A program made the position numbers and the translations under genes. A stretch of 64,000 nt of DNA from an uncultured Rhizobiaceae bacterium (GTDB lineage: Bacteria > Pseudomonadota > Alphaproteobacteria > UBA7879 > VGCX01): assembly GCA_964350815.1 (NCBI GenBank), contig CAYGKW010000001.1:3980-67979 (forward strand), in the 5' to 3' direction. How positions within the stretch are numbered: the first letter of the stretch is position 1; each line of letters opens with the position of its first letter. A model generated the notes under the pieces. The model did no database searches and was not told the DNA's origin. It saw only the letters and a list, made by a program, of their open reading frames with translations. Of this stretch, positions 8,928 through 53,924 are shown piece after piece.

Positions 8928-10805
8928 ATGTCTCTTGAAAATAAATGCTTAACAAAAATAAAAAGAATTGTCCAAAATGATATAGGGCCTTTTTCCGTTC
9001 TGCCCCAAGGATCACAGGCAAGACTGATTGCTTTATTTTCCATTGAAGAATTTAAAAAAAATACCGTCATTACAAAAGCCACACAAAATGCAGATTTTTT
9101 ATATTTCCTTATTGAAGGATCTGTTGACTTAAGTATCAAAAATCAAATAATACCTATCAAAGAAGGTATGCTTTTTGGAGAAGAATGCGTTTTAGACCAA
9201 AAATCATATGTCGGTACGGCGTCTGTGAAGTCAAAAAATGTGATAATTGCAAAAATCCATAAATTTGACCTTATTCGTTTGGTTAAATATGACCGCAAAA
9301 TGTTGAATGAATTAATTCTTAATTTTTCCAGAGAATTTACACGTAAATTTCAGCAAAGACCTGAAAAAGGAATACGGAAACAGAAAACTGTCCAATCCTT
9401 CAACGAAGCAATTTATTTATTGGGTTGGATCTCTGCCATTATCACCCCAATTTTATTGTTTCATTTTCTTGATTTATACTTTGAATTCCAGGTAAAACAA
9501 AAATTATTTTTATGCATTTTGTCTGGAACCCTAATTACTTGGGCCTTCAGACTTGTCCCTGAATTCATCCCATCTATTTTTGCGCTACTTATAAGTCTAG
9601 GTATTGGTCTAACCGATCCAAAAGTTATTTTATCTGGGTTTTCGTCGCGAACATTTATTATGGCCTTGGGAATCTTTGGAATTGCCGCCATTATTATGTC
9701 TTCAGGATTACTATATAGAATTTTATTAAATTTATTAAACAAAGTCCCCAAAAATAATATTCTTGTGAATATGTCCATGTTTACGCTTGGGGCAGCACTT
9801 ACACCAACGGTTCCAGATACAGCCAACAGATTAAATCTTTCGGTTTCTTTCGTTAAAGATGCTTATGCAACCTTGCGCATGCACCACAAAGATAAAATGT
9901 GGACTGTTGTTGTTGCAAACGCCTTACAAAGCGTTACTTTGCTGGGCCCTACATTTTTAAGTAGTTCGGTACGAAACTACGTTTTGCTTGGGTTGTTTTG
10001 GGGGCAATATCAAACCCAATTTCAATGGATGGGATGGTTAAAAGCTTCGATCGTTACAGCCTTGATATTGATGACTTTGCATGCCATTTTAATGGCCTTA
10101 TTAATGCGCGGATTTACAAAAATCAAGCTTTCCAGAAATTTGATCACCCGGCAAATTGAAACTCTTGGCTCCCCCACTTCTTATGAATGGGCGGCTGGCA
10201 TTGGGACCTTTATTTGTTTTATTGGGATGGCCACCACAAGATATCACCGCATTAACCCCGAAACAATTGCCTTGCTTGTCTTATCAACCTTATTAACTTT
10301 CAGTTTTATCCGTCGCGATGGCTTTAATACTGACATAAACTGGCCCGAACTTGTTTACCTTGCTGGAATCACAGGGTTATTATCAACAGCAAATCACCTT
10401 GGTCTTCTTGATGTTGTTTCTGAAAAACTTAATTTTGTTGGGAGCTATATGTTAGAGAATTTTAACAAAACCATTGCCATTATTTTTGTATTAATAACCT
10501 TAACCCGACTTGTAATGCCCAAAGGGCCAACGATATTTATTTTTGGGTCGATACTTATACCTATCTCGCAGTCAATTGGAATTTCACCTTGGTTAATGGC
10601 CTTTGTTGTTTTGATTTTTGGGGAATCTTTTTATTTTCCTTTTCAGTCACCTGAATATGGAAATTTTAGATATGATTTGATGAAACATCATCCTTTTAAA
10701 GAAACGTCTGTGCTGATATTAAATGCAGCCCTTAATCTTTTAAAGTTATTGGCTGTTTATTTAAGCATGCCTTATTGGAAATATATAGGATTATTGAGTC
10801 TTTAG
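8928..10805 (+). CDS. cyclic-nucleotide-binding domain fused to SLC13/DASS-type anion permease
   Basis: N-terminal ADFLYFLIEGSV...LFGEE cNMP fold; about 12 hydrophobic segments with VILSGFSS..F and INWPEL motifs. Confidence 0.75.
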   Translation: MSLENKCLTKIKRIVQNDIGPFSVLPQGSQARLIALFSIEEFKKNTVITKATQNADFLYFLIEGSVDLSIKNQIIPIKEGMLFGEECVLDQKSYVGTASVKSKNVIIAKIHKFDLIRLVKYDRKMLNELILNFSREFTRKFQQRPEKGIRKQKTVQSFNEAIYLLGWISAIITPILLFHFLDLYFEFQVKQKLFLCILSGTLITWAFRLVPEFIPSIFALLISLGIGLTDPKVILSGFSSRTFIMALGIFGIAAIIMSSGLLYRILLNLLNKVPKNNILVNMSMFTLGAALTPTVPDTANRLNLSVSFVKDAYATLRMHHKDKMWTVVVANALQSVTLLGPTFLSSSVRNYVLLGLFWGQYQTQFQWMGWLKASIVTALILMTLHAILMALLMRGFTKIKLSRNLITRQIETLGSPTSYEWAAGIGTFICFIGMATTRYHRINPETIALLVLSTLLTFSFIRRDGFNTDINWPELVYLAGITGLLSTANHLGLLDVVSEKLNFVGSYMLENFNKTIAIIFVLITLTRLVMPKGPTIFIFGSILIPISQSIGISPWLMAFVVLIFGESFYFPFQSPEYGNFRYDLMKHHPFKETSVLILNAALNLLKLLAVYLSMPYWKYIGLLSL

Positions 10806-10806
10806 T

Positions 10807-11856
10807 ATGTTTAAAAAAAGATTTTTCATAGTAAAAGGTATTTTGATTTTAGTCATTTTTTGGTTTATTTTATCTTATAATTTAAATCGTCCAAGGGTGA
10901 TGGTTATACACAGTTATTCTTCAACTTTATCTTCTGTTAGGGCTTTCAGCCGGGGCTTTGATGAGGCCTTAAAACATGACAAAAATCCATCCACATTAAC
11001 GTACTATATGAACACTTTAAATCGTCAAAAAGAACGCAACAAAGTAGGTTCTGGTGTATCTGCTGTCGGTATTATTGAGGATTTCAAACCACAAGTTATC
11101 GTTGCCGTCGGCGAAGAGGCCCAAGAATATGTGACCAAGAAATATATTGACCATCCAGAAATTAAAATCGTTTATGCAAAGATAAAAAACCCAGGTTTAT
11201 ATGGTTACGAAACAGCAAAAAATATTACTGGCGTTCGTGAACAATTCCCCCTAAAAGAAGTTAAAAATGTTTTGTTGGACCTTACCCCCAAAAAACGTCT
11301 AAAGCTTGCTTCTATTGGTGATCAAACAACCTTAATGTCAGCAGACGACAATTTTATTATTGAACATTCTTGGGATCCCCATGTGATTACAGATTCCCTT
11401 ATGGTTAAAAATTTTGATGAATGGAAAAAAGCGATTCGTAAGTTAAATAAAATGAAAGAAGTTGATTTTATTTTAGTATCTAACTACAGAAATATAAAAG
11501 AATCTTCAGACAGTCAAAAAGTCTTATATCATAAAGATGTCATAGCCTGGACCATTGAAAATTCGGAAATCCCTGTTGTTGGCCTTTATGAAACAAATTC
11601 CAAGGATGGGGTACCCATTTCAATTTCAACTTCTTCTTATACCGAAGGGCAATCAACTGCAAAATTGGTTCTTGAAATTATCCAAGAAAGTTCTGTAAAA
11701 ACCAAGCAATTAGAAACCCAGCATTTTTTAGTTAGTTTAAACACAAAATATTCAATGTATGACGATTTAAAAGTCCCCGAAATATATAAATCTTTTGCAA
11801 TAGCATCAGGGTTATATTACGAAAGCAGTATGCGAAATGGTAAATATAAAATATAA
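10807..11856 (+). CDS. ABC-type substrate-binding / periplasmic sensor-like protein
   Basis: N-terminal TM then VMVIHSYS...GFDEAL, VIVAVGEEA; resembles ABC_sub_bind family. Confidence 0.65.
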   Translation: MFKKRFFIVKGILILVIFWFILSYNLNRPRVMVIHSYSSTLSSVRAFSRGFDEALKHDKNPSTLTYYMNTLNRQKERNKVGSGVSAVGIIEDFKPQVIVAVGEEAQEYVTKKYIDHPEIKIVYAKIKNPGLYGYETAKNITGVREQFPLKEVKNVLLDLTPKKRLKLASIGDQTTLMSADDNFIIEHSWDPHVITDSLMVKNFDEWKKAIRKLNKMKEVDFILVSNYRNIKESSDSQKVLYHKDVIAWTIENSEIPVVGLYETNSKDGVPISISTSSYTEGQSTAKLVLEIIQESSVKTKQLETQHFLVSLNTKYSMYDDLKVPEIYKSFAIASGLYYESSMRNGKYKI

Positions 11857-43427: not shown

Positions 43428-44669
43428 ATGTATAAAGAATTTTTCAAACAATCCTTGGACCACCTTAAACATGAAGGGCGTTACCGAGTTTTTATTGAAC
43501 TGGAAAAAATTCCAGGGGCTTTCCCGCGCGCAAAATACCCTACAGAATCAGGGTCAAAAGAAGTAACGATTTGGTGTTCAAATGACTATTTAGGCATGGG
43601 CACCCACCCGGATGTAATAAAACAAATGCACCAAGCCCTTGATCAAGATGGGGCTGGTTCGGGCGGCACGCGTAATATTGGCGGCACCCATCATTGGCAC
43701 ACAAAACTTGAACAAGAATTGGCATCCCTTCATAAAAAGGATAGTGCTTTATTATTCACGTCAGGCTATGTTGCAAATGAATCAGCATTATCCACATTGG
43801 CAAGTCGTTTACCCAATTGTGTTGTTTTATCTGATGCCCAAAATCACGCCTCCATGATTCATGGGATAAGGTATTCCAAAGCAGAAAAAATGATTTTCCG
43901 CCACAATGATGTGGGACATTTAGAAGAATTATTACAAAGTATCGACCCCCATCGTCCAAAAATCATTGCCTTTGAATCTGTCTATTCTATGGCGGGCGAT
44001 ATCGCCCCCATCAAAAAGATCTGTGCCCTAGCAAAAAAATACAAAGCCCTAACCTATATTGATGAAGTACATGCTGTTGGCCTGTATGGACCGAATGGGG
44101 CTGGGGTTGTTGATGAACTTGGCCTGCAAGATAATATTGATATTATCTGCGCCAATTTCGGAAAAGCCATTGGGGTCCTTGGGGGGTATATTACGGCTGG
44201 TGCGGAAACCATTGACTTTATTCGTAGCCATGCGTCCCCTTTTATCTTTACCACCTCTTTGCCGCCCTCTATTGCTGCTGGGGCATTGGCAAGCATCCAA
44301 CATATTCGTAAAGATGCGACAGAACGTTTGCAAATGCATCAAAAAGTCAGCTTGTTAAAAAGCAAGCTTAGGCAGACTGCCATTGAATTTTTAGACAGCG
44401 AAAGCCATATCATTCCTGTAATGGTTCGAAATGCTGAAATATGCAAAGGGATCAGTGATGCGTTATTAAAAAATCATCAAATATATATTCAACCCATTAA
44501 TTACCCAACAGTTCCAAAGGGTGAAGAAAGATTACGTATTACAGTAACCCCCTACCATACACCTGAAATGATTGATCACTTGATCACAAGTTTAACGACA
44601 GTTTGGAAAGAATTCGGATTAACATCATGCCAACAAAAAATTCAAAAGGATCAGGCAGCCGCTTTTTAA
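43428..44669 (+). CDS. hemA: 5-aminolevulinate synthase
   Basis: WCSNDYLGM, GAGSGGTRNI, DEVHAVGLYG, QPINYPTV..GEERLR. Confidence 0.96.
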   Translation: MYKEFFKQSLDHLKHEGRYRVFIELEKIPGAFPRAKYPTESGSKEVTIWCSNDYLGMGTHPDVIKQMHQALDQDGAGSGGTRNIGGTHHWHTKLEQELASLHKKDSALLFTSGYVANESALSTLASRLPNCVVLSDAQNHASMIHGIRYSKAEKMIFRHNDVGHLEELLQSIDPHRPKIIAFESVYSMAGDIAPIKKICALAKKYKALTYIDEVHAVGLYGPNGAGVVDELGLQDNIDIICANFGKAIGVLGGYITAGAETIDFIRSHASPFIFTTSLPPSIAAGALASIQHIRKDATERLQMHQKVSLLKSKLRQTAIEFLDSESHIIPVMVRNAEICKGISDALLKNHQIYIQPINYPTVPKGEERLRITVTPYHTPEMIDHLITSLTTVWKEFGLTSCQQKIQKDQAAAF

Positions 44670-45319
44670 CGGTTAAGTTGAAAAAAAGCCGTGGCCGTTC
44701 CATATCATCCCAAAGATGGTTGCAACGACAATTAAATGATCCTTATACCCAAGAAGCACAGAAAATGGGATATCGTTCCCGTGCGGCTTTTAAACTAAAG
44801 CACATTCATGAAAAATATAATATTTTGAAACCCACTATGCGGGTGGTGGATTTAGGCGCGGCCCCTGGGGGTTGGTGCCAAGTCTTAATCGAACACATTG
44901 ACACATCTAAACCCAAGAATGAAATTGTTGCTATCGACATTTTGGAAATGGAACCCATGGCCGGTGTTACAACTTTGCAATTAGATTTCGAAGATCATGA
45001 TGCCCCTGAAATTTTAAAAAGTAAAATGTCTGGGTCGGCTGATTTGGTCTTAAGTGACATGGCGCCCCCAACAACAGGACATAAAAATACCGATCACTTG
45101 CGCATTATGTCGCTGGTGGAAATGGCCTATGATTTTGCAGAACAAATTTTGGCCCCTGGCGGTGCTTTTGTTGCAAAGGTTTTCCAAGGCGGGACGGAAC
45201 AAGAAATTTTGAAGAAATTAAAGAAAGACTTTGAAAAAGTGCATCACTTTAAACCTGAATCCAGCCGAAAAGATTCATCCGAAATGTTTGTCGTCGCCCT
45301 TGGCTTTAAAAGAAAATAG
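44627..45319 (+). CDS. rlmE: 23S rRNA 2'-O-methyltransferase RlmE/FtsJ
   Basis: WLQRQLNDPY, YRSRAAFKL, DLGAAPGGW, KPESSRKDSSE; start ATG 44627. Confidence 0.96.
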   Translation: MPTKNSKGSGSRFLTVKLKKSRGRSISSQRWLQRQLNDPYTQEAQKMGYRSRAAFKLKHIHEKYNILKPTMRVVDLGAAPGGWCQVLIEHIDTSKPKNEIVAIDILEMEPMAGVTTLQLDFEDHDAPEILKSKMSGSADLVLSDMAPPTTGHKNTDHLRIMSLVEMAYDFAEQILAPGGAFVAKVFQGGTEQEILKKLKKDFEKVHHFKPESSRKDSSEMFVVALGFKRK

Positions 45320-45371
45320 GGTTACAGAAACATAAAATATAATAATCTATAACCCTTAAAAATTCTACACA

Positions 45372-46541
45372 CTAAATATCTTTGATTAAACGTACTAAAT
45401 CAGAGGGTCTTCCAGGAACCCAACTATATATCCCTCTCTCCCAAAAACTTGCAAGACTTGGGGATTTAAGCAAAGGTAAACCCCAACCCCTTCCTGATTT
45501 ATAGGCCCCCGACAAATAAAACATCAGATCATCATATGTAGCGCAGTTAAATATCATCTCCCTTGAAGCATCTGGGGAAGGAAAAGTTTCATATCTAGGT
45601 ATCCCCAAATAACGTCCGTGGATTATCCTCTTCATAGTTCCCTCAACATTAATTTCTTTCAAACGAACCCAACTATCATGAACTATCGAACTATCTTCCC
45701 TAGCATAATGAATAAAGTTTCTTGCTCTATGTATATCTACCCATAAGTCTCCACTAGAATTAATAGGTCTTCCCAAATCTCTGAATTCCCCTTCATTCAA
45801 TATTTTGACCATGGTGACTTTTTCGTTTTCATCTGGAGAAAATAATTTAGGGTCTTCCCCCCTAAAAACCTTTAGGCGAAAATTATCAATTCCCCCACCA
45901 TTTAATTCAAGAACATGAAAAACATTGCCCGCTGAATCTTTATAATCATAACGCATGGTTTTAACAGGGCGCGATGAAACACTTTTATCTTTTTTAGACT
46001 CACTGTTCATAAAATCAAAATAAACAGAAATATATGTAGGTAAATCATAAACTTCCCTAATAAGCCTTCGCTTGTGCAACATACATATATTTTGTGCATG
46101 CTTCACATCTTCTGGATCTACATATACCGTTTTCACAATACGATAACCATGACCAATTCTTTTTTTTGCAGTATCTAAACTCCAGAACTTAAAGACAGGT
46201 GTTTCTTTAAGCCTCTCCTCTCCAAAACTTATGCCATGTAGCCAAGTTTCACTGCGATCTTTATCATAGCCTTCAAATAAAATAACTGCATGACTTGTCG
46301 AATCCTGCCAATTTCTCCATTTAAGATGATCTCCGGGGTTACATAATACGTCTAAATAACTTGTAAATTTATGTTCCTCTTCTTTTACAGCCAATGAAGC
46401 TGTCCAAGTACATGCCCCCAACATCTTTCCTGTAATGGGGCTTGCTTTTCTTAACTCTTCAGAATCTACAGCTGCAGCAAAGCTTTCCTTGCTTGATAAA
46501 AACACAAGCAAGGAAAATAAAATAAAAATTACTTTTTTCAT
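45372..46541 (-). CDS. hypothetical secreted protein
   Basis: 389 aa, signal peptide MKKVIFILFSLLVFLSSKESFA; no family recognised. Confidence 0.75.
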   Translation of the reverse strand: MKKVIFILFSLLVFLSSKESFAAAVDSEELRKASPITGKMLGACTWTASLAVKEEEHKFTSYLDVLCNPGDHLKWRNWQDSTSHAVILFEGYDKDRSETWLHGISFGEERLKETPVFKFWSLDTAKKRIGHGYRIVKTVYVDPEDVKHAQNICMLHKRRLIREVYDLPTYISVYFDFMNSESKKDKSVSSRPVKTMRYDYKDSAGNVFHVLELNGGGIDNFRLKVFRGEDPKLFSPDENEKVTMVKILNEGEFRDLGRPINSSGDLWVDIHRARNFIHYAREDSSIVHDSWVRLKEINVEGTMKRIIHGRYLGIPRYETFPSPDASREMIFNCATYDDLMFYLSGAYKSGRGWGLPLLKSPSLASFWERGIYSWVPGRPSDLVRLIKDI

Positions 46542-46561
46542 TTTTTTTGTACCAAATAAAT

Positions 46562-46873
46562 TTATCTTAAGATATCAGGCCAAACTTGTCTTAAAAAAGT
46601 TCTATATGACTGGGCTGTAAATTCTGTAACACTTGCAATCGCTGTGAATGCCGGGTCTATGGCTGCCCTTCTTGCTGCTGAAGATGCTCCTTCGATAAAT
46701 GCTGCCCAACTGTCTTTAGTTATTAATGTACGGGGATGATACAAAACTTCAGGTACATGCCCTTCTATGATTTGGCGGGCAACACCTGCTCTTCCCTGGT
46801 TTTCTACTTCAGCAGCCGCGTTCACATTTACTGAATTCAACGATAACAATGTTATTAATAATAATTTTTTCAT
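46562..46873 (-). CDS. hypothetical secreted protein
   Basis: AGGAG RBS, signal peptide MKKLLLITLLSLNSVNVNA; 103 aa. Confidence 0.7.
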   Translation of the reverse strand: MKKLLLITLLSLNSVNVNAAAEVENQGRAGVARQIIEGHVPEVLYHPRTLITKDSWAAFIEGASSAARRAAIDPAFTAIASVTEFTAQSYRTFLRQVWPDILR

Positions 46874-46967
46874 AATAATCTCCTTGTATAAAGTTATACT
46901 TAAAATTAAAATGAACTTTTTATTGGATTTAAAGTTTAAAAATTCAGGTTCTGACTATTGCTTAAAA

Positions 46968-47093
46968 TTAACCCTGATCCTTCTTTGCCCAGGCCTTGTT
47001 ATGTTTATCTTTATAACAATCACAGAACAGCGGTTCACAACTTGTCAAAGCGAAAAGCCCAAGTATGGCCAATAAAACTTTTTTTGATTTCAT
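46968..47093 (-). CDS. 41-aa Cys-rich lipoprotein, copy A
   Basis: AGGAGG RBS; MKSKKVLLAILGLFALTS-CEPLFCDCYKDKHNKAWAKKDQG; lipobox LTSC; below ORF-track cutoff. Confidence 0.88.
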   Translation of the reverse strand: MKSKKVLLAILGLFALTSCEPLFCDCYKDKHNKAWAKKDQG

Positions 47094-47119
47094 CTGATCC
47101 TCCTGTCATTTATTAATAT

Positions 47120-47145
47120 AAAAAAAAGGGGTTTCCCCCTTTTTA
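47120..47145. terminator. bidirectional intrinsic terminator
   Basis: A8-GGGG-TTTC-CCCC-T5. Confidence 0.65.
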
Positions 47146-47157
47146 TTTTCTATAGAC

Positions 47158-47513
47158 TTATTCAATTTCGCCATCATCAGGGGCTTGAACGAATTTCCAC
47201 CTGTCTTTTATAGGCAACCAAAGGACATTATCACCCATTCTTCTAATGTTTCTATCAGAAGGACTTTCTGGAAGAGTTCCTATAAATCTTACTTTTATAT
47301 TATGACGTCTATTTTCAATACTTGATATTGTTATTAATCTGGTTCTGCGGCTGCTGCTGGACCTGCTGCTGCTCCTGCTGGACCTGCTGGACCTGCTGCT
47401 GCCGCTCCTGCTGCTGCTTCTGCAGCTGCCCCATCTGCTGCTGCTGCTTTGGCAGTCGTAGCATTTAACATAAGCCCCATTATTAAAATAAAGATTAAAT
47501 TTATATATTTCAT
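47158..47513 (-). pseudogene. secreted Ala/Gly/Pro-rich protein, frameshifted near 47340
   Basis: ATG 47513 gives MKYINLIFILIMGLMLNATTAKA-AAADGAAAEAAAGAAAAGPAGPAGAAAGPAAAAEPD-stop (47334); an ATG-less frame continues RLITISSIENRRHNIKVRF...APDDGEIE-stop (47158). Confidence 0.7.
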
Positions 47514-47573
47514 TTTTTTACCTTCCTAATTGTTTACACATTTTTATTTATTATACTAAGCCTTCAATATTAT

Positions 47574-47699
47574 TCAACCCTGATCCTTCTTCGCCCAGGC
47601 CTTGTTGTGTTTGTCTTTATAACAATCACAGAACAACGGCTCACAGCTGGTTAAGGCGAAAAGTCCAAGCATGGCCAATAAAACTTTTTTTGATTTCAT
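47574..47699 (-). CDS. 41-aa Cys-rich lipoprotein, copy B
   Basis: AGGAGG RBS; identical to copy A except I10M. Confidence 0.88.
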   Translation of the reverse strand: MKSKKVLLAMLGLFALTSCEPLFCDCYKDKHNKAWAKKDQG

Positions 47700-47844
47700 C
47701 TAATCCTCCTGTTATTTCTTAATATTGTACATCATCTGCAACAGATGAAAACTTAATTTTTTTCCTTTGCTGCGACCAACGCTTTCCTGTTTTAATTCCT
47801 GATAAATATGCTATGGTAAAGTACTTATTTAAAAAGCATTAATC

Positions 47845-48918
47845 ATGAAAAAAACATACAAATCATCACACCTTATTTCTGCTGTTATCCTTTTTTCCAT
47901 TTTTATATGGTTTGGATCTGGATTTTTATTTCCTTCCACGTCAAAAGAAAATGTGATTGAGGAAAAATCAAAAACTTTTTCTGTTCAAGTAAAAGGGTCA
48001 GAAGCCATCCCCCACACCCTTAGCCTTGAATTAAATGGCAAAACCGAGGCTGGCCGCAAAGTAATCATCCGTGCAGAAACCGATGGAACAGTCGAAAAAC
48101 TGCATGTGACTGAGGGAGATTTTGTTAAAGAGGGCCAAAAATTAATCACATTGAAATTGGAAGATCGTAAAGAAAAACTACAAAGTGCCAAAGCCTTATT
48201 AAGCCAACGGGAATTAGAATATACCGCGGCCAAAAAGTTATCAAAGAAAAATTATCGATCCAAAACGTCTTTGGCAAAATCTTTGGCAGAGCTTGAAAAG
48301 GCCCGCGCCGATTATAAAAAAGCCCAGGTTGATATTAATAATTCTGTGATCAAGGCACCGTTTGATGGCATTTTAAATAAATATGATGTGGAAATTGGCG
48401 ATATTGTTTCAGAATTTTCAAACACCCCCCTTGCCACATTCGTTGAATTGAATCCCTTACTGATTGTTGTTCATGTGGAAGAAAAACATTACAAATATCT
48501 TGAAAAGGGCAAAAGTGTGGATGTTATTTTTGCAGATGGCACCAAGGCCCAAGGCATTATTTCATACATTTCAACAGTGGCTGATCCAAATACCCATACC
48601 TTTAGGATCGAAGTTAAAATAGACAATCCTGATTTTGAAATTCCTGCAGGTATTTCTGCATCTGTTAAATTACCTTTAAAAGAATCAATGGCACACAAGG
48701 TGCCTTCCAGTTCTTTGACTTTATCTGATGATGGTATTTACGGAATAAAAACAGTTGATGAATCAAATGTTGTAGAATTTTATCCAGCCGACTTAATTGA
48801 ATCTGGTAGTGAATGTTTATGGATTGCAGGCCTACCTGAAACCATAAGAATTATTACCGTTGGACACGAATTTGTAAAAGAAGGGAACACCGTTATCCCC
48901 GTGGAAACAAGCGAATAA
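47845..48918 (+). CDS. RND efflux periplasmic adaptor subunit
   Basis: IRAETDGTVEKL, IKAPFDGIL, ADPNTHTFRIEV. Confidence 0.92.
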   Translation: MKKTYKSSHLISAVILFSIFIWFGSGFLFPSTSKENVIEEKSKTFSVQVKGSEAIPHTLSLELNGKTEAGRKVIIRAETDGTVEKLHVTEGDFVKEGQKLITLKLEDRKEKLQSAKALLSQRELEYTAAKKLSKKNYRSKTSLAKSLAELEKARADYKKAQVDINNSVIKAPFDGILNKYDVEIGDIVSEFSNTPLATFVELNPLLIVVHVEEKHYKYLEKGKSVDVIFADGTKAQGIISYISTVADPNTHTFRIEVKIDNPDFEIPAGISASVKLPLKESMAHKVPSSSLTLSDDGIYGIKTVDESNVVEFYPADLIESGSECLWIAGLPETIRIITVGHEFVKEGNTVIPVETSE

Positions 48919-48921
48919 ACC

Positions 48922-51900
48922 ATGCATCAGTTAATTAATTTCTGCTTAAATCATGTTCGTACCGTCCTATTGCTCTTCTTCTTTTTGTTTATTGGGGGCC
49001 TTTATACCTATGTCACCATTCCAAAAGAATCTGCCCCAGATGTTAAAATTCCTATCGTCTATGTCAGTGTACATCACCAAGGGATTTCCCCCGAAGATTC
49101 TGAACGATTAATTTTAAAACCCATTGAACAGCATGTCCGTAGTGTCGAAGGGCTGAAAGAAGTCAAGGCCATCGCCAGCGAAGATTTCGGAACATTTATT
49201 TTAGAATTTTATGCTGGGCATAACATTGACAAAGCCATAGTGGATGTTCGCGACAAAATTGATACAGCCAAAGCAGATTTGCCCATGGATTCTGATGATC
49301 CCATTGTTAAAGAAATTAATATCAGCCTTTTTCCAGTTTTGGTCATACAACTTGCCGGTGATATTCCTGAACGCACTCTATTTAATATTGGGCGGGATTT
49401 ACAAGATGAAATTGAAACCATCAAAAGTGTTTTAGAAGCCAAAGTTTTAGGAAATCGTGAAGAAGTTGTGGAAATTATTATTAATCCCATGCTTCTTGAA
49501 AGTTTTGATATATCCCTGGCTGATGTGATGCGATTATTTGCCAATAATAATATTATGGTACCTTCAGGAAACATTAAATCCGGGGCTGGAAGTTTTATGT
49601 TAAAAGCCCCCGGCCTTTTAGAAACGGTTCAAGATATTGCCAACTTGCCCCTAAAAACAAGCGGGACAGATTCTGTTCTTCGATTAAAAGATGTGGCAAG
49701 TGTCAAGCGAACGTATAAAGACAGATTATCTTATGCCCGGGATAAAGGACGCCCTGCGATTGTTGTCGAAGTATCAAAACGCATGGGCGAAAATATTATC
49801 GAAACAATTGAACAAGTTCGTGAAAAAACAATTGAATTCCTAAAACCCTATAAAGGAAAAATTTCTGTGACATTTGCCCAGGATGATTCGCAACGTATTC
49901 GCGATATGTTATCAGAACTGCAAAACAATATTATCATGGCTATTATTTTGGTCATGATTATTATCATCACAGCCCTGGGCTGGCGATCTGGTTTGCTTGT
50001 GGGGGCTGCCATTCCAACCTCTTTCCTTGCAGGGATTTTTATTCTTGGATTAATGGGCCACACCCTAAATATTGTTGTGCTTTTCAGCTTGATTTTATCA
50101 GTTGGTATGCTGGTTGACGGGGCCATCATTGTGGTTGAATATGCCGACCGAAAAATGCTTGAAGGCAAAAATAAACTGGATGCCTATAAAGAAGCCTCAA
50201 TCCGAATGGCTCTACCTGTTATCACATCAACTGTCACTGTTTTGGTTGTATTTATGCCCTTACTTTTCTGGCCAGGGGTTGTGGGGCAATTTATGAAATT
50301 CATGCCCATCACATTAATTGCCACCTTAACATCCTCTCTGTTTGTGGCACTGATTTTCATTCCTGCCTTGGGCAGTTTATTTGGAAATGCGGCACAGTCA
50401 AATAAAGACGCCATCAAATCAATTATTGCTGCTGAAACAGGTAAAATCGAAGACATCAAAGGCATCGCCGGATATTATGTTAAAACTCTTAAAGATTTTA
50501 TTGAAATGCCCGGGAAGACTTTAATTGGATCCTGTGTCATTTTATATGCCGTTATTTTCACATACTCCCACCTTGGGCGTGGGATTGAATTTTTCCCAAA
50601 TATTGAACCGGATTCTGCCATCTATATGGTAAAGGCCCGGGGGAATTTATCAGTACAAGAGAAAGATCGACTTGTTAAAAAAGTGGAAAATCAAATTATC
50701 AATACAAAAGAATTTAAAACGGTTTACACCAAATCCGGCAATTTACAAAATCGAGAATTTTCCGAAGATACAGTTGGTGCCATTACGGTAGAATTAATTC
50801 ATTGGCAAAGCCGTGACAAGGCCAATGTGGTTTTGGAACGCACCTTAAAAAATATCAATAATATTCCAGGTATTATTGTTGAATTAAAAATTAATAAAAA
50901 GGGGCCCCAAAAAGGCAAACCCATTGATATTGAAATTTCATCTGATGATTATGATTTATTGGCGCCCGAAGTTGATCGTATTGAAAATTATTTAACAACT
51001 GTTAAAGGAATTGAAGACATTGAAGATTCAAGGCCCAAACCTGGGATTGAATGGGAATTAAAAATTGATCGGGCCGAGGCTGGAAAATATGGCGCCGATG
51101 TTACAGGTATTGGGGCTGTTACCCAACTTGTGGCAGATGGAATGAAATTTGGAACGTATCGTCCAGAAGACAGTCGTGATGAAATTGATGTGGTTGTACG
51201 TTTTCCAGAAAAATATCGCAATTTAGATCAGTTAGATCAAATACGCATTCAAAATGAAAATGGGCAAGTTCCCATTACAAACTTTGTAAAACGCATTGCA
51301 AAACAACGGGTGGCGTCTATTGAACGCATTGATGGAAAACCTTACATGGATGTTCAGGCCAATGTAAACAGTAAGTTTTTGGTGGATAACAAGGTTAAAG
51401 AAATCCAAAAATGGTTGGGAAAAAATCCTGGCAATAAAAAAGTTAAAATCACTTTTAAAGGCGAAGAAGAAGATAAAAAAGAAACTGGGTCATTCTTAAT
51501 GAAGGCCTTTATGGTTGCAATCTTTTTAATCATTATTATTCTGGTCACCCAGTTCAACAGTTTTTTCAGCACCATGCTGGTCATCAGTTCTATTGGTCTT
51601 TCAACCGTTGGGGTGTTGGTTGGTCTGCTTGTTATGAATCAAGCCTTTAGCATTGTCATGAGTGGGATTGGCGTCATCGCCCTGGCCGGAATTATTGTCA
51701 GTAACAACATTATTTTCATCGATACCTTTGACGATTTGAAAAACAAAACAAAGAATAAAACCGAAGCGATTTTAAGAACAGCGGCCCAACGTTTGCGCCC
51801 CATATTGCTAACTCAGATCACAACGATCTTAGGATTAATGCCAATTCTGTTCCGGATGGATATTGATTTCTTATCGCGATATATCACCATTGGTGCGCCC

Positions 51901-52032
51901 TCCAGTGAATGGTGGGTACAACTGGCCAGTGCCATTGTCTTTGGGGTTTTCTTTGCGTCAATTTTTACCTTGATTGTCACCCCTTGTGCCTTGCAACTGC
52001 GCGAAAATTATCGCACTTGGCGTCAAAGATAA
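48922..52032 (+). CDS. AcrB/AcrD/AcrF family RND transporter
   Basis: 1036 aa; VGMLVDGAIIVVE, GIIVSNNIIFID, RLRPILLTQITTILGLMP. Confidence 0.95.
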   Translation: MHQLINFCLNHVRTVLLLFFFLFIGGLYTYVTIPKESAPDVKIPIVYVSVHHQGISPEDSERLILKPIEQHVRSVEGLKEVKAIASEDFGTFILEFYAGHNIDKAIVDVRDKIDTAKADLPMDSDDPIVKEINISLFPVLVIQLAGDIPERTLFNIGRDLQDEIETIKSVLEAKVLGNREEVVEIIINPMLLESFDISLADVMRLFANNNIMVPSGNIKSGAGSFMLKAPGLLETVQDIANLPLKTSGTDSVLRLKDVASVKRTYKDRLSYARDKGRPAIVVEVSKRMGENIIETIEQVREKTIEFLKPYKGKISVTFAQDDSQRIRDMLSELQNNIIMAIILVMIIIITALGWRSGLLVGAAIPTSFLAGIFILGLMGHTLNIVVLFSLILSVGMLVDGAIIVVEYADRKMLEGKNKLDAYKEASIRMALPVITSTVTVLVVFMPLLFWPGVVGQFMKFMPITLIATLTSSLFVALIFIPALGSLFGNAAQSNKDAIKSIIAAETGKIEDIKGIAGYYVKTLKDFIEMPGKTLIGSCVILYAVIFTYSHLGRGIEFFPNIEPDSAIYMVKARGNLSVQEKDRLVKKVENQIINTKEFKTVYTKSGNLQNREFSEDTVGAITVELIHWQSRDKANVVLERTLKNINNIPGIIVELKINKKGPQKGKPIDIEISSDDYDLLAPEVDRIENYLTTVKGIEDIEDSRPKPGIEWELKIDRAEAGKYGADVTGIGAVTQLVADGMKFGTYRPEDSRDEIDVVVRFPEKYRNLDQLDQIRIQNENGQVPITNFVKRIAKQRVASIERIDGKPYMDVQANVNSKFLVDNKVKEIQKWLGKNPGNKKVKITFKGEEEDKKETGSFLMKAFMVAIFLIIIILVTQFNSFFSTMLVISSIGLSTVGVLVGLLVMNQAFSIVMSGIGVIALAGIIVSNNIIFIDTFDDLKNKTKNKTEAILRTAAQRLRPILLTQITTILGLMPILFRMDIDFLSRYITIGAPSSEWWVQLASAIVFGVFFASIFTLIVTPCALQLRENYRTWRQR

Positions 52033-52108: not shown

Positions 52109-52972
52109 ATGTATAAACTTTTTCTATTATTTATTTTTCTATCTGCAAAAACATATGGCGCTGCGGCTTTTTCTACAGAACCCGATGCTGCTGCAAGCGC
52201 TTCAGCCTCATCAAAACCTGTTAGTGCAACGGAAACTGGCACAGTTATTCATGAAACGGCGGGCCATATTCCTTACTATTTCAGGGCAGATCCTGTAACA
52301 GAAGATTTTATAGAAAATCTGAAAGAATACCAAGCCGCTGAAAAAAAACTTTTTTCTGCTTATTCTGAAGACTTATTACCTGGACTTTCTGCTGAGGACA
52401 GAAAGAAAAAAGAAACAATTATTGGAAGCTGTGAAAGAGTTTTAGATGATCTTGTTAAATATGCAAGCATACACTACTCCCGTACAGATACTTGGATTAT
52501 GTCTGTTATAAGAAAAGAAGATGAAGCACCTTTAATGCGTGTATGTGCCAAAACATGTTCTCGTTCTAAATTTACACACCATATCGGTATATGCCAAAGC
52601 TTCGCACGCTTTGTTAGCGATGATACACCCAAAGGATTATCATTAATACTACACGGTTTTGCCGCTGATTTTATGATTAAGCGTGAATCCAAAAGAGAAT
52701 CAGGTTACATGATAACTACACCTACAAAGATCATGGATGATATACTGTCAGAAACTTTGGGGGGGTGTTACACAAAATCAAAACTTGGGCATGGCAGAGA
52801 AGGTTTTTACATTGAACTTCACGCAAGATCTAGAGCTAAATTTATAGTGGATATAGTTATGTTGGATAAAGAAAACGACTCTTGGATACATGATCTACAT
52901 CTACGTGATAAAGCATCAAGCCTTAAAGCTTTACAAAAAAAATTTTTAGAGGCTTTGGCGGCCCCAGCTTAG
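52109..52972 (+). CDS. hypothetical secreted protein
   Basis: Signal peptide MYKLFLLFIFLSAKTYG followed by Ala/Ser-rich linker; 287 aa. Confidence 0.72.
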   Translation: MYKLFLLFIFLSAKTYGAAAFSTEPDAAASASASSKPVSATETGTVIHETAGHIPYYFRADPVTEDFIENLKEYQAAEKKLFSAYSEDLLPGLSAEDRKKKETIIGSCERVLDDLVKYASIHYSRTDTWIMSVIRKEDEAPLMRVCAKTCSRSKFTHHIGICQSFARFVSDDTPKGLSLILHGFAADFMIKRESKRESGYMITTPTKIMDDILSETLGGCYTKSKLGHGREGFYIELHARSRAKFIVDIVMLDKENDSWIHDLHLRDKASSLKALQKKFLEALAAPA

Positions 52973-53027: not shown

Positions 53028-53924
53028 CTAGGACCTTGGATGGGCCTTAGTATAAATCTGTTTCAATTTCTCTCGATTAATATCGGCATACCGTTGGGTG
53101 GTGGATAATGACGCATGGCCAAGAAGTTCTTGGATGGTACGTAAATCACCATCGGCCTCCAGTAAATGTGTGGCAAATGTATGACGCAAAGCATGGGGGG
53201 TTACTGTTTCAGGTAATCCTATTTTCCGGCGAATATCGCGGATTTGTTTTTCTGCAACACTGATATTAAGACGCTTACCTTTTGCCCCATAAAACAAGGG
53301 ACCCGAATCAAAAGGGCACATACCTTGGTACTTTTCAATGGCACTTTTTACAACTGGCAATACAGGAACAATGCGTTCTTTGTTTCCTTTTCCCTTGATG
53401 CGTAAGACAGTTTCAGTTACATCTTTTTGGTCCAACCCCAAGGCTTCACTAATACGCAAACCACATCCATAAAGAAGGGTGAACAACGCCAAATTTCGTT
53501 GATTAACCCAATCAATTTTATCATCATGTTCAAACGAATCCAGTAAGCCAGTTGCTTGTGTTTTTGACAATCCCCGTGGAATTGACTTTGGAATTTTGGG
53601 GGATCTTATATTTTGAATAATGGGATTGTGTAAAATATCTTGATGATCTAAGTATTTATAAAAACTACGCACCACACTTAAGGCCCGCGCGATGGAAGAT
53701 TTGGCCAATTGCTTTTCATTCATGTGGCCAAGCCATGCCCGAAAATCAGATGCTTTTAAATTTTCCAAAGTTTTTAAGGTGGGTTCTTCGCCCTGATAAT
53801 GGGTGATGAAAAACAAGAATTGATCCAAGTCTTTTTGATAAGCCAGAAAAGTATTGGTGGATAACTGGCGTTCTGATTTCACCCATATTATCCACCGTTC
53901 AATAACTTGTTCAATGTCTTGCAT
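53028..53924 (-). CDS. xerC: tyrosine recombinase XerC
   Basis: YGCGLRISEAL, TPHALRHTFATHLL..DGDLRTIQELLGHASLSTTQRY. Confidence 0.93.
   Translation of the reverse strand: MQDIEQVIERWIIWVKSERQLSTNTFLAYQKDLDQFLFFITHYQGEEPTLKTLENLKASDFRAWLGHMNEKQLAKSSIARALSVVRSFYKYLDHQDILHNPIIQNIRSPKIPKSIPRGLSKTQATGLLDSFEHDDKIDWVNQRNLALFTLLYGCGLRISEALGLDQKDVTETVLRIKGKGNKERIVPVLPVVKSAIEKYQGMCPFDSGPLFYGAKGKRLNISVAEKQIRDIRRKIGLPETVTPHALRHTFATHLLEADGDLRTIQELLGHASLSTTQRYADINREKLKQIYTKAHPRS

Follow-up and report, generated by a model that had tools for sequence, protein, structure and literature searches.

We asked whether a locus that places the same micro-lipoprotein gene ahead of different secreted-protein genes is a dedicated lipoprotein-cargo system or a site at which secreted genes come and go. 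The locus lies in the 64,000-nucleotide (nt) stretch of DNA analyzed here (the window; all coordinates are positions in it unless a contig is named, and G000 is the window's own genome). Read on the minus strand from 47760 to 45300, it consists of a micro-lipoprotein gene (lipoB), an open reading frame (ORF) for an Ala-rich protein, a terminator, a second micro-lipoprotein copy (lipoA), and ORFs for secreted proteins of 103 and 389 amino acids (aa). Its left border is a divergent plus-strand operon for a membrane fusion protein (MFP) and a resistance-nodulation-division (RND) efflux pump, and its right border is the convergent plus-strand gene rlmE. This six-element anatomy and the position between rlmE and the RND pump genes agree with an earlier sequence-only reading of the window, which had proposed an expandable cassette array with the lipoprotein gene as constant partner or recombination anchor of exchangeable exported cargo. 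Our analysis points to a simpler answer: the locus is probably a small, strain-variable hotspot of gene exchange without mobile elements, at which secreted accessory genes ride on the lipoprotein promoter. Its features are listed below; L018 is a relative that carries a filled allele of the same locus.

47724-47751 (-): candidate lipoprotein promoter TTTTCA-16-TACAAT from a promoter scan, overlapping the palindrome
47733-47747: perfect palindrome CATCTG-N3-CAGATG, inside the lipoprotein promoter block
47574-47699 (-): lipoB, 41-aa micro-lipoprotein joined to the conserved promoter (ORF, sequence, syntenic orthologues)
47550-47577 (-): promoter-like site TTGAAT-16-TATAAT, 10/12 matches to the consensus, overlapping the lipoB stop
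47334-47513 (-): Ala-rich ORF, 59 aa, with signal peptide, Shine-Dalgarno site and GCA-type repeats (ORF, repeat search)
47158-47333 (-): open tail in a different frame, ending just ahead of the terminator (translation)
47122-47144 (both strands): bidirectional intrinsic terminator A5G4-GAAA-C4T8, -13.8 kcal/mol, directly upstream of lipoA
46968-47093 (-): lipoA, second micro-lipoprotein copy, 41 aa, 40/41 identical to lipoB (I10 vs M10)
46562-46873 (-): 103-aa orphan ORF with Sec signal, 94 nt after lipoA
45372-46541 (-): 389-aa orphan ORF with Sec signal, 20 nt after the 103-aa ORF
45318-45356 (-): hairpin with 11-bp stem and T-run, abutting the rlmE end; -14.3 kcal/mol, z -3.5, near-identical in L018
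45318-46945 (-), approximate: horizontally exchanged module (leader, 103-aa gene, 389-aa gene, terminator), from alignments to L018 and low synonymous divergence
44603-45319 (+): rlmE (FtsJ family), convergent core gene (Pfam FtsJ on orthologues)
47845-48918 and 48922-52032 (+): MFP and RND genes of the efflux pump operon

Each of the four ORF types has a K-rich n-region, a hydrophobic core and a small-x-small site.

Empty and filled alleles of the locus

The content between the core flanks amounts to 0, 2 or 4 extra ORFs, and the flanks, MFP-RND on one side and rlmE-hemA-lpxC on the other, are present in every contig. No cargo follows the lipoprotein gene in 8 distinct contigs that represent at least four lineages (G001, L019, L020, L021, L022, L023, L024 and L026), where the lipoprotein stop overlaps the rlmE stop; three of these, L019, L020 and L021, are 92% identical to G000. 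Besides G000, filled alleles occur in three contigs (L018, L047 and L048), which carry ORFs of 102 and 392 aa with 74-79% identity to the 103-aa protein and 69-70% to the 389-aa protein (69-70% likewise for the 389-aa protein against P0001). In every filled allele a lipoprotein copy lies 94-96 nt upstream of the 103-aa gene.

Comparison of strains bore out the variability that the sequence-only reading had anticipated: the pair is found in L018, L047 and L048 and is missing from G001 and L024, and it is found in G000 and missing from the 92%-identical L019. L018 and the empty G001 are ~98% identical over 17 kb except for a 1.64-kb indel, and the empty L024, like G001, is otherwise ~98% identical to L018. 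Since near-identical genomes exist with and without the pair, it is a presence/absence polymorphism. The empty junction is homologous in four lineages. In the filled alleles, rlmE is shortened by its final two codons and ends at a stop codon supplied by the module hairpin, at the same point in both clades. The shared right junction, together with the homologous empty junction, makes the empty state look ancestral and the filled state look like the product of one insertion.

The flanking core DNA also carries signs of exchange. Beside the indel, identity between L018 and G001 is 89-97% over ~2 kb of rlmE-hemA and then 99%, which fits the signature expected of an imported recombination tract. 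In addition, L018 shows mosaic patches of 89-93% identity to L017 (G001) at 10350-11250, 1200-1650 and 12600-13000 of L018, within sequence that is otherwise 98-100% identical; as judged from these alignments, the patches indicate frequent homologous recombination in the lineage. No integrase, transposase or phage gene was found among the ORFs in 45372-47699 with Pfam, NCBIfam and PHROG.

The G000 allele, with its two lipoprotein copies, comes from a genome of 1.33 Mb in 34 contigs that is 100% complete. The copies form a 150-nt direct repeat (46970-47119 and 47576-47725, 91% identity) that spans the Shine-Dalgarno region and leader (~26-30 nt) and the whole lipoprotein coding sequence. The lipoprotein duplication is real: three unitigs that join at a shared 29-mer have depths of 32.4, 30.3 and 29.4 in a source-type biofilm metagenome, and identical pieces of the locus occur in 3 further samples of the same biofilm study. 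An assembly artefact or a strain mixture was ruled out by the equal unitig depth.

Horizontal movement of the secreted-protein pair

G000 and L018 belong to different clades with ~81% nucleotide identity, and each has an empty close relative. Divergence between the two, as synonymous divergence (pS) and as divergence at four-fold sites, is given below.

lpxC, hemA, rlmE, MFP and RND: pS 0.56-0.63; four-fold-site divergence 0.51 (n=834)
389-aa gene: pS 0.27; four-fold-site divergence 0.16 (n=129, both cargo genes pooled)
103-aa gene: pS 0.24; four-fold-site value pooled with that of the 389-aa gene

The four-fold-site divergence of the cargo genes (0.16) differs from that of the core genes (0.51) with Fisher p = 2.5e-14, and the G000-L018 divergence of the cargo is about that of the core genes between G000 and L019 (pS 0.24-0.33). 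With a synonymous divergence 3-4x below that of its flanks, the pair has moved horizontally within the genus. The segment shared by G000 and L018 extends from ~25 nt past the lipoprotein stop to the hairpin. The lipoprotein gene and rlmE are at core-level divergence and therefore lie outside the mobile segment. The 103+389 pair is the one recurring cargo module; the promoter scan predicted no promoter upstream of its 103-aa gene, and its 3' end is a conserved hairpin followed by a T-run. The locus combines constant core flanks and variable content with a lack of mobile-element genes, horizontally acquired content and signs of recombination in the flanks, and these are the properties of a hotspot.

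The locus appears to have begun as the lipoprotein gene between MFP-RND and rlmE, with overlapping stops and no cargo. A two-gene module without a predicted promoter, bringing its own leader and terminator hairpin, was inserted into this gap and has since been transferred between species of the genus, most likely via recombination in flanking core DNA. Once in place, the module would be transcribed together with the lipoprotein gene, at the distal end of one operon. In G000, a later recombination event, whether duplicative, illegitimate or of one-sided homology, may have added the second lipoprotein copy and the Ala-rich unit. Homology-facilitated illegitimate recombination is a known mechanism, and a one-sided homologous join combined with an illegitimate one would yield the lipoprotein duplication. 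The synonymous divergence between lipoA and lipoB is 0.44 +/- 0.10, compared with ~0.30 for G000-L019, so that the duplication is old or one of the copies came from another lineage.

The Ala-rich unit is particular to G000. Neither the relatives nor the rest of the G000 genome contain a counterpart of the segment 47094-47583, and no paralogue or homologue of the 59-aa ORF was found. From its sequence elements, a promoter-like site, a signal-peptide ORF and a terminator, the segment looks like a self-contained unit, in which TTGAAT-16-TATAAT would drive the Ala-rich ORF. The mature part of the protein is an Ala/Gly/Pro tract encoded by the GCA-type repeats. The ORF is followed by ~190 nt without a properly started ORF; a 119-aa stop-to-stop frame (47158-47470, minus strand) runs through the GCA repeats with its first Met codon at 47238, and across the repeat tract none of the three minus-strand frames contains a stop. 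No homologues of the spacer tail ORF were found in 61 genomes. Speculatively, the Ala-rich ORF may be the 5' portion of a ~118-aa gene interrupted by a frameshift.

The lipoprotein, its cargo and the rival explanations

The lipoB protein (MKSKKVLLAMLGLFALTSCEPLFCDCYKDKHNKAWAKKDQG) has the lipobox LTSC and a predicted mature peptide C-EPLFCDCYKDKHNKAWAKKDQG. Its precursor segment, MKSKK-VLLA(I/M)LGLFA-LTS-C, is unchanged in eight orthologues and has the n-region, h-region and lipobox of a lipoprotein; the Pfam match to LPAM_1 is weak (E 0.47, below cut-off). The micro-lipoprotein is thus predicted to be a bacterial lipoprotein and a substrate of Lgt and LspA. The lipobox cysteine C19, the cysteines C24 and C26 and 24 other positions are invariant in the family. 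Of the 12 nt differences between lipoA and lipoB, 10 are synonymous, 1 is non-synonymous and 1 falls in the stop codon; the ratio of non-synonymous to synonymous divergence (pN/pS) is 0.02 between the two genes and 0.02-0.33 across the eight orthologues (0.02-0.15 for lipoB). The micro-lipoprotein gene is a true coding gene under strong purifying selection.

Searches of 5.8 billion proteins, JGI metagenomes and GTDB representatives confined the lipoprotein family to one genus. In all relatives it is single-copy and always sits between the divergent MFP-RND operon and the convergent rlmE, with one syntenic copy in G001, L018, L019-L024, L026 and L047/L048. The gene was not found in the sister genus of the family, nor in any of the other 59 relatives searched. 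It is thus a core gene restricted to this genus. The 40-nt promoter block with the palindrome inside it hardly varies among seven lineages, and the palindrome occurs once in the genome and is conserved across the genus. From its placement, the palindrome is a candidate operator in the intergenic region common to the lipoprotein gene and the MFP-RND operon, and the conserved block may act as promoter or operator. The promoter scan predicted no promoter for lipoA, whose expression would require terminator read-through or an atypical promoter. The lipoprotein itself may well have an independent envelope role.

The cargo proteins evolve in a different manner. The 389-aa gene has a pN/pS of 0.61 overall and ~1 in its C-terminal half (G000 vs L018). 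For the 103-aa gene the value is 0.38, although its last 37 codons are strongly conserved; in the protein, the C-terminal 45 residues are almost invariant and the N-terminal mature part is variable; its homologues are solely the 102-aa proteins of L018 and L047/L048. Neither the cargo proteins nor the 480-nt spacer have paralogues in the G000 genome. A word-indexed search of 5.8 billion proteins returned same-genus relatives only, and a scan of GTDB species representatives with the 389-aa protein gave no match. At E<=1, Pfam produced two weak sub-threshold matches for the block ORFs, the one to LPAM_1 and one to DUF4995. When 1.84 billion representatives were searched in full with HMMER and the 389-aa profile, one true remote match emerged (P0007); a second match, to an RTX-repeat protein, was judged spurious. 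P0007 has 303 aa and a signal peptide and matches the Sel1 repeat weakly, below threshold (E 0.007), and its C-terminal domain matches residues ~34-186 of the 389-aa protein with 31% identity. Its gene lies in the short contig L049 (Logan contig SRR20074301_367596, 177-3407), three genes downstream of a tyrosine integrase (Arm-DNA-bind_3 and Phage_integrase), probably on a mobile island of an unrelated bacterium. The cargo would fit the role of fast-evolving exported or surface proteins in a reduced-genome, probably host-associated bacterium, and its most likely target would be the cell surface, a host or a competitor.

Could the lipoprotein and the cargo instead form a dedicated system? In that case the lipoprotein would be an obligatory partner of the cargo (a tether, chaperone or release factor) and its gene the homologous anchor of an expandable cassette array. 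The lipoprotein gene does stand directly upstream in each cargo-bearing allele, two different units in G000 each follow a copy of their own, both copies are under strong purifying selection, and genes are gained and lost between strains with a horizontally mobile module. Such a system is unlikely, however, because the lipoprotein occurs alone in the 8 contigs of at least four lineages and is equally conserved there, one module type recurs and the Ala-rich unit was seen once, and the mobile segment begins ~25 nt past the lipoprotein stop and leaves the gene out. Furthermore, no recombinase or recombination sites, no rearranged variants in the depth data and no second such locus in the genome were found. 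What stands of the sequence-only reading is that the site is variable, that the main cargo is mobile and that the lipoprotein is the constant element of the locus. The lipoprotein's presence without cargo speaks against a constant partnership, and no dedicated recombination or export machine is indicated. Nor were the other parts of the proposal supported: with one recurring module and an Ala-rich unit unique to G000, there is no evidence of exchangeable cargo; a tabulation of lipoprotein copies with their downstream genes gave these two copies in the whole G000 genome and no other micro-lipoprotein and cargo locus; and a recombination anchor is not supported, as no recombinase is present and no attC-like or dif-like sites bound the units. 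We regard as quite unlikely a related scheme, in which the lipoprotein gene is a recombinase-free platform for capture and expression, promoterless secreted modules spread by landing behind it, and the lipoprotein is needed as a tether or release factor. This scheme would explain why the lipoprotein copy was duplicated and kept intact once a third unit had split it from the 103+389 pair.

Two further explanations assign the lipoprotein a different partner or task. In a bacteriocin-like module, the 389-aa protein would be a secreted toxin, the 103-aa protein a periplasmic immunity protein or chaperone, and the lipoprotein a colicin-type release protein. A small lipoprotein with a small and a larger exported protein is reminiscent of colicin operons, and the pair varies between strains, was transferred horizontally and evolves fast in patches, which is common for toxin-immunity pairs. 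Against this, the gene order is reversed relative to colicin operons (toxin-immunity-lysis), with the lipoprotein first. No similarity to colicin lysis proteins or to known families of toxins or immunity proteins was found, the 389-aa and 103-aa proteins both have Sec signals, and there is no obvious SOS-type operator, the operator-like palindrome occurring once in the genome. A lipoprotein that is core in strains lacking the pair is also unfit to be a lethal release factor. We consider this explanation very improbable. Equally small is the probability that the lipoprotein serves the MFP-RND pump, as an accessory subunit or as a regulator-linked partner, and that the downstream genes are hitchhikers. 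In every lineage of the genus, its gene and the pump operon are divergently transcribed from a conserved 145-nt intergenic region, and its two additional invariant cysteines (CxC) could serve in metal binding or in a disulfide. Yet its place beside rlmE is equally invariant, so that synteny does not discriminate, and co-occurrence with the pump was not seen beyond within-genus synteny: in the sister genus, the closest pump relative (MFP 39% identical) lacks the gene upstream. The pump also looks like a generic RND permease, and no lipoprotein of ~41 aa is known as an RND subunit.

The hotspot without mobile elements remains our preferred explanation, and several points weigh against it. The constant upstream lipoprotein copy, together with an extra copy that was long retained, could point to lipoprotein and cargo being functionally tied and not just sharing a promoter; in G000 the extra copy has remained intact over roughly the time since the G000-L019 split (pS 0.44 vs 0.30). 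In the comparison of G000 with L018, the flanking rlmE and lipoprotein genes show no reduced divergence, and the inter-clade transfer left no detectable homologous tract. Co-transcription of the module with the lipoprotein gene is a relation that we infer. The ORFs of the block have no match in Pfam, NCBIfam, PHROGs, PADLOC or PDB sequence profiles, and the AlphaFold2 models are poor (pLDDT 41 for the 389-aa protein; pLDDT 58 and pTM 0.55 for its N-domain modeled from three sequences). Foldseek found no PDB match with a template modeling score (TM) above 0.26, and hence no fold was assigned. We give a functional link between lipoprotein and cargo a small chance, and the persistent pairing of the two would be the more interesting if it proved functional. 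As it stands, the locus shows recent between-species movement of two orphan secreted proteins without obvious mobile elements at the site, and it is useful for understanding how such reduced-genome bacteria keep varying their exported repertoire. It also adds three new and very narrow families: a 41-aa CxC lipoprotein, a 103-aa secreted protein and a 389-aa secreted protein.

Orphan secreted genes are numerous in the G000 genome and lie dispersed between housekeeping genes. The sequence-only reading had noted an Ala-Ala after each predicted signal cleavage site of the three cargo proteins; this pattern proved to be genome-wide, with 27 of ~217 signal-like ORFs (~12%) in a screen of the whole genome that used a crude heuristic (small-x-[A/G], then Ala-Ala). 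The Ala-Ala(-Ala) mature starts often continue with Asp, Glu, Ser or Gly (ANAAAD, YAAAE, FAAAA), and many of these exported ORFs have Ala-rich N-terminal tracts. The Ala-Ala start looks like a genome-wide style of exported orphans. A 287-aa orphan signal-peptide protein (TYG-AAAF...) encoded directly downstream of the RND gene (52109-52972, plus strand) shares the pattern. At this position the sister species has unrelated genes for 245-aa and 289-aa proteins and L019 has a 502-aa gene, a second variable spot, on the far side of the pump operon. As for export, RND pumps are not known to export Sec-signal proteins, and a link between the cargo and the adjacent pump is therefore not indicated. 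Contig C12 of G000 (C12:31658-40064) encodes a cluster of a secretin, two pseudopilin-like proteins, a GspF-like protein and a GspE-like ATPase, of the type II secretion or type IV pilus type, which might carry Sec-exported proteins across the outer membrane. No VirB10/TrbI homologue was found in the G000 genome.

Comparison with known systems

The micro-lipoprotein resembles colicin lysis lipoproteins and the entericidins EcnA/EcnB in size, with precursors of ~41-50 aa and mature lipopeptides of ~23-30 aa, and EcnAB, like lipoA and lipoB, are tandem paralogues parted by a terminator. In contrast to these proteins, it has a conserved C-x4-C-x-C and a Lys-rich tail and is single-copy in all relatives. 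Membership of either family was rejected, with no sequence or profile match in Pfam and NCBIfam. Arrays of orphan modules in contact-dependent inhibition (CDI) and Rhs loci likewise have a conserved repeated 5' segment ahead of different units, here the 150-nt lipoprotein gene, and such a repeat could in principle mediate homologous swapping or deletion. Unlike those arrays, the locus has no toxin or immunity domains and no rearranged variants, and its repeat is a complete gene under selection, not a fragment of a toxin gene.

Integron cassette arrays are alike in concept, with promoterless units behind a resident promoter and strain-variable content, but the locus holds one or two units, one of them with its own promoter-like site and terminator. 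An integron was rejected: the neighborhood has no IntI integrase, and the module ends have no attC sites (GTTRRRY / RYYYAAC cores). By inspection, the hairpin at the module 3' end (AGGGTTATAGA...TCTGTAACCCT) is without R'/R'' cores, and no matching site is present at the 5' end. The nearest recombinase, of the XerC/D type (53028-53924, minus strand; Phage_int_SAM_1 and Phage_integrase), lies 5.3 kb from the islet. Xer-dependent modules, such as integrative mobile elements exploiting Xer (IMEX) or those of the pdif type, were also rejected, as nothing at the ends of the module corresponds to a candidate chromosomal dif (C3:56829) or to dif-like patterns.

Many hotspots of gene transfer reportedly lack recognizable mobile elements, and homologous recombination in the core genes beside them is frequent. 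The locus is closest to this class: like the mobile-element-free hotspots (compare Oliveira et al. 2017, PMC5635113), it is a fixed site bounded by core genes, with content that varies among close relatives and consists of strain-specific secreted genes, no integrase or transposase, and signs of recombination in the flanks. It differs from them in being very small (0 to 2.3 kb). It differs also in that the module has no predicted promoter and apparently uses that of the resident lipoprotein gene, and in that this resident gene was duplicated in one genome during capture.

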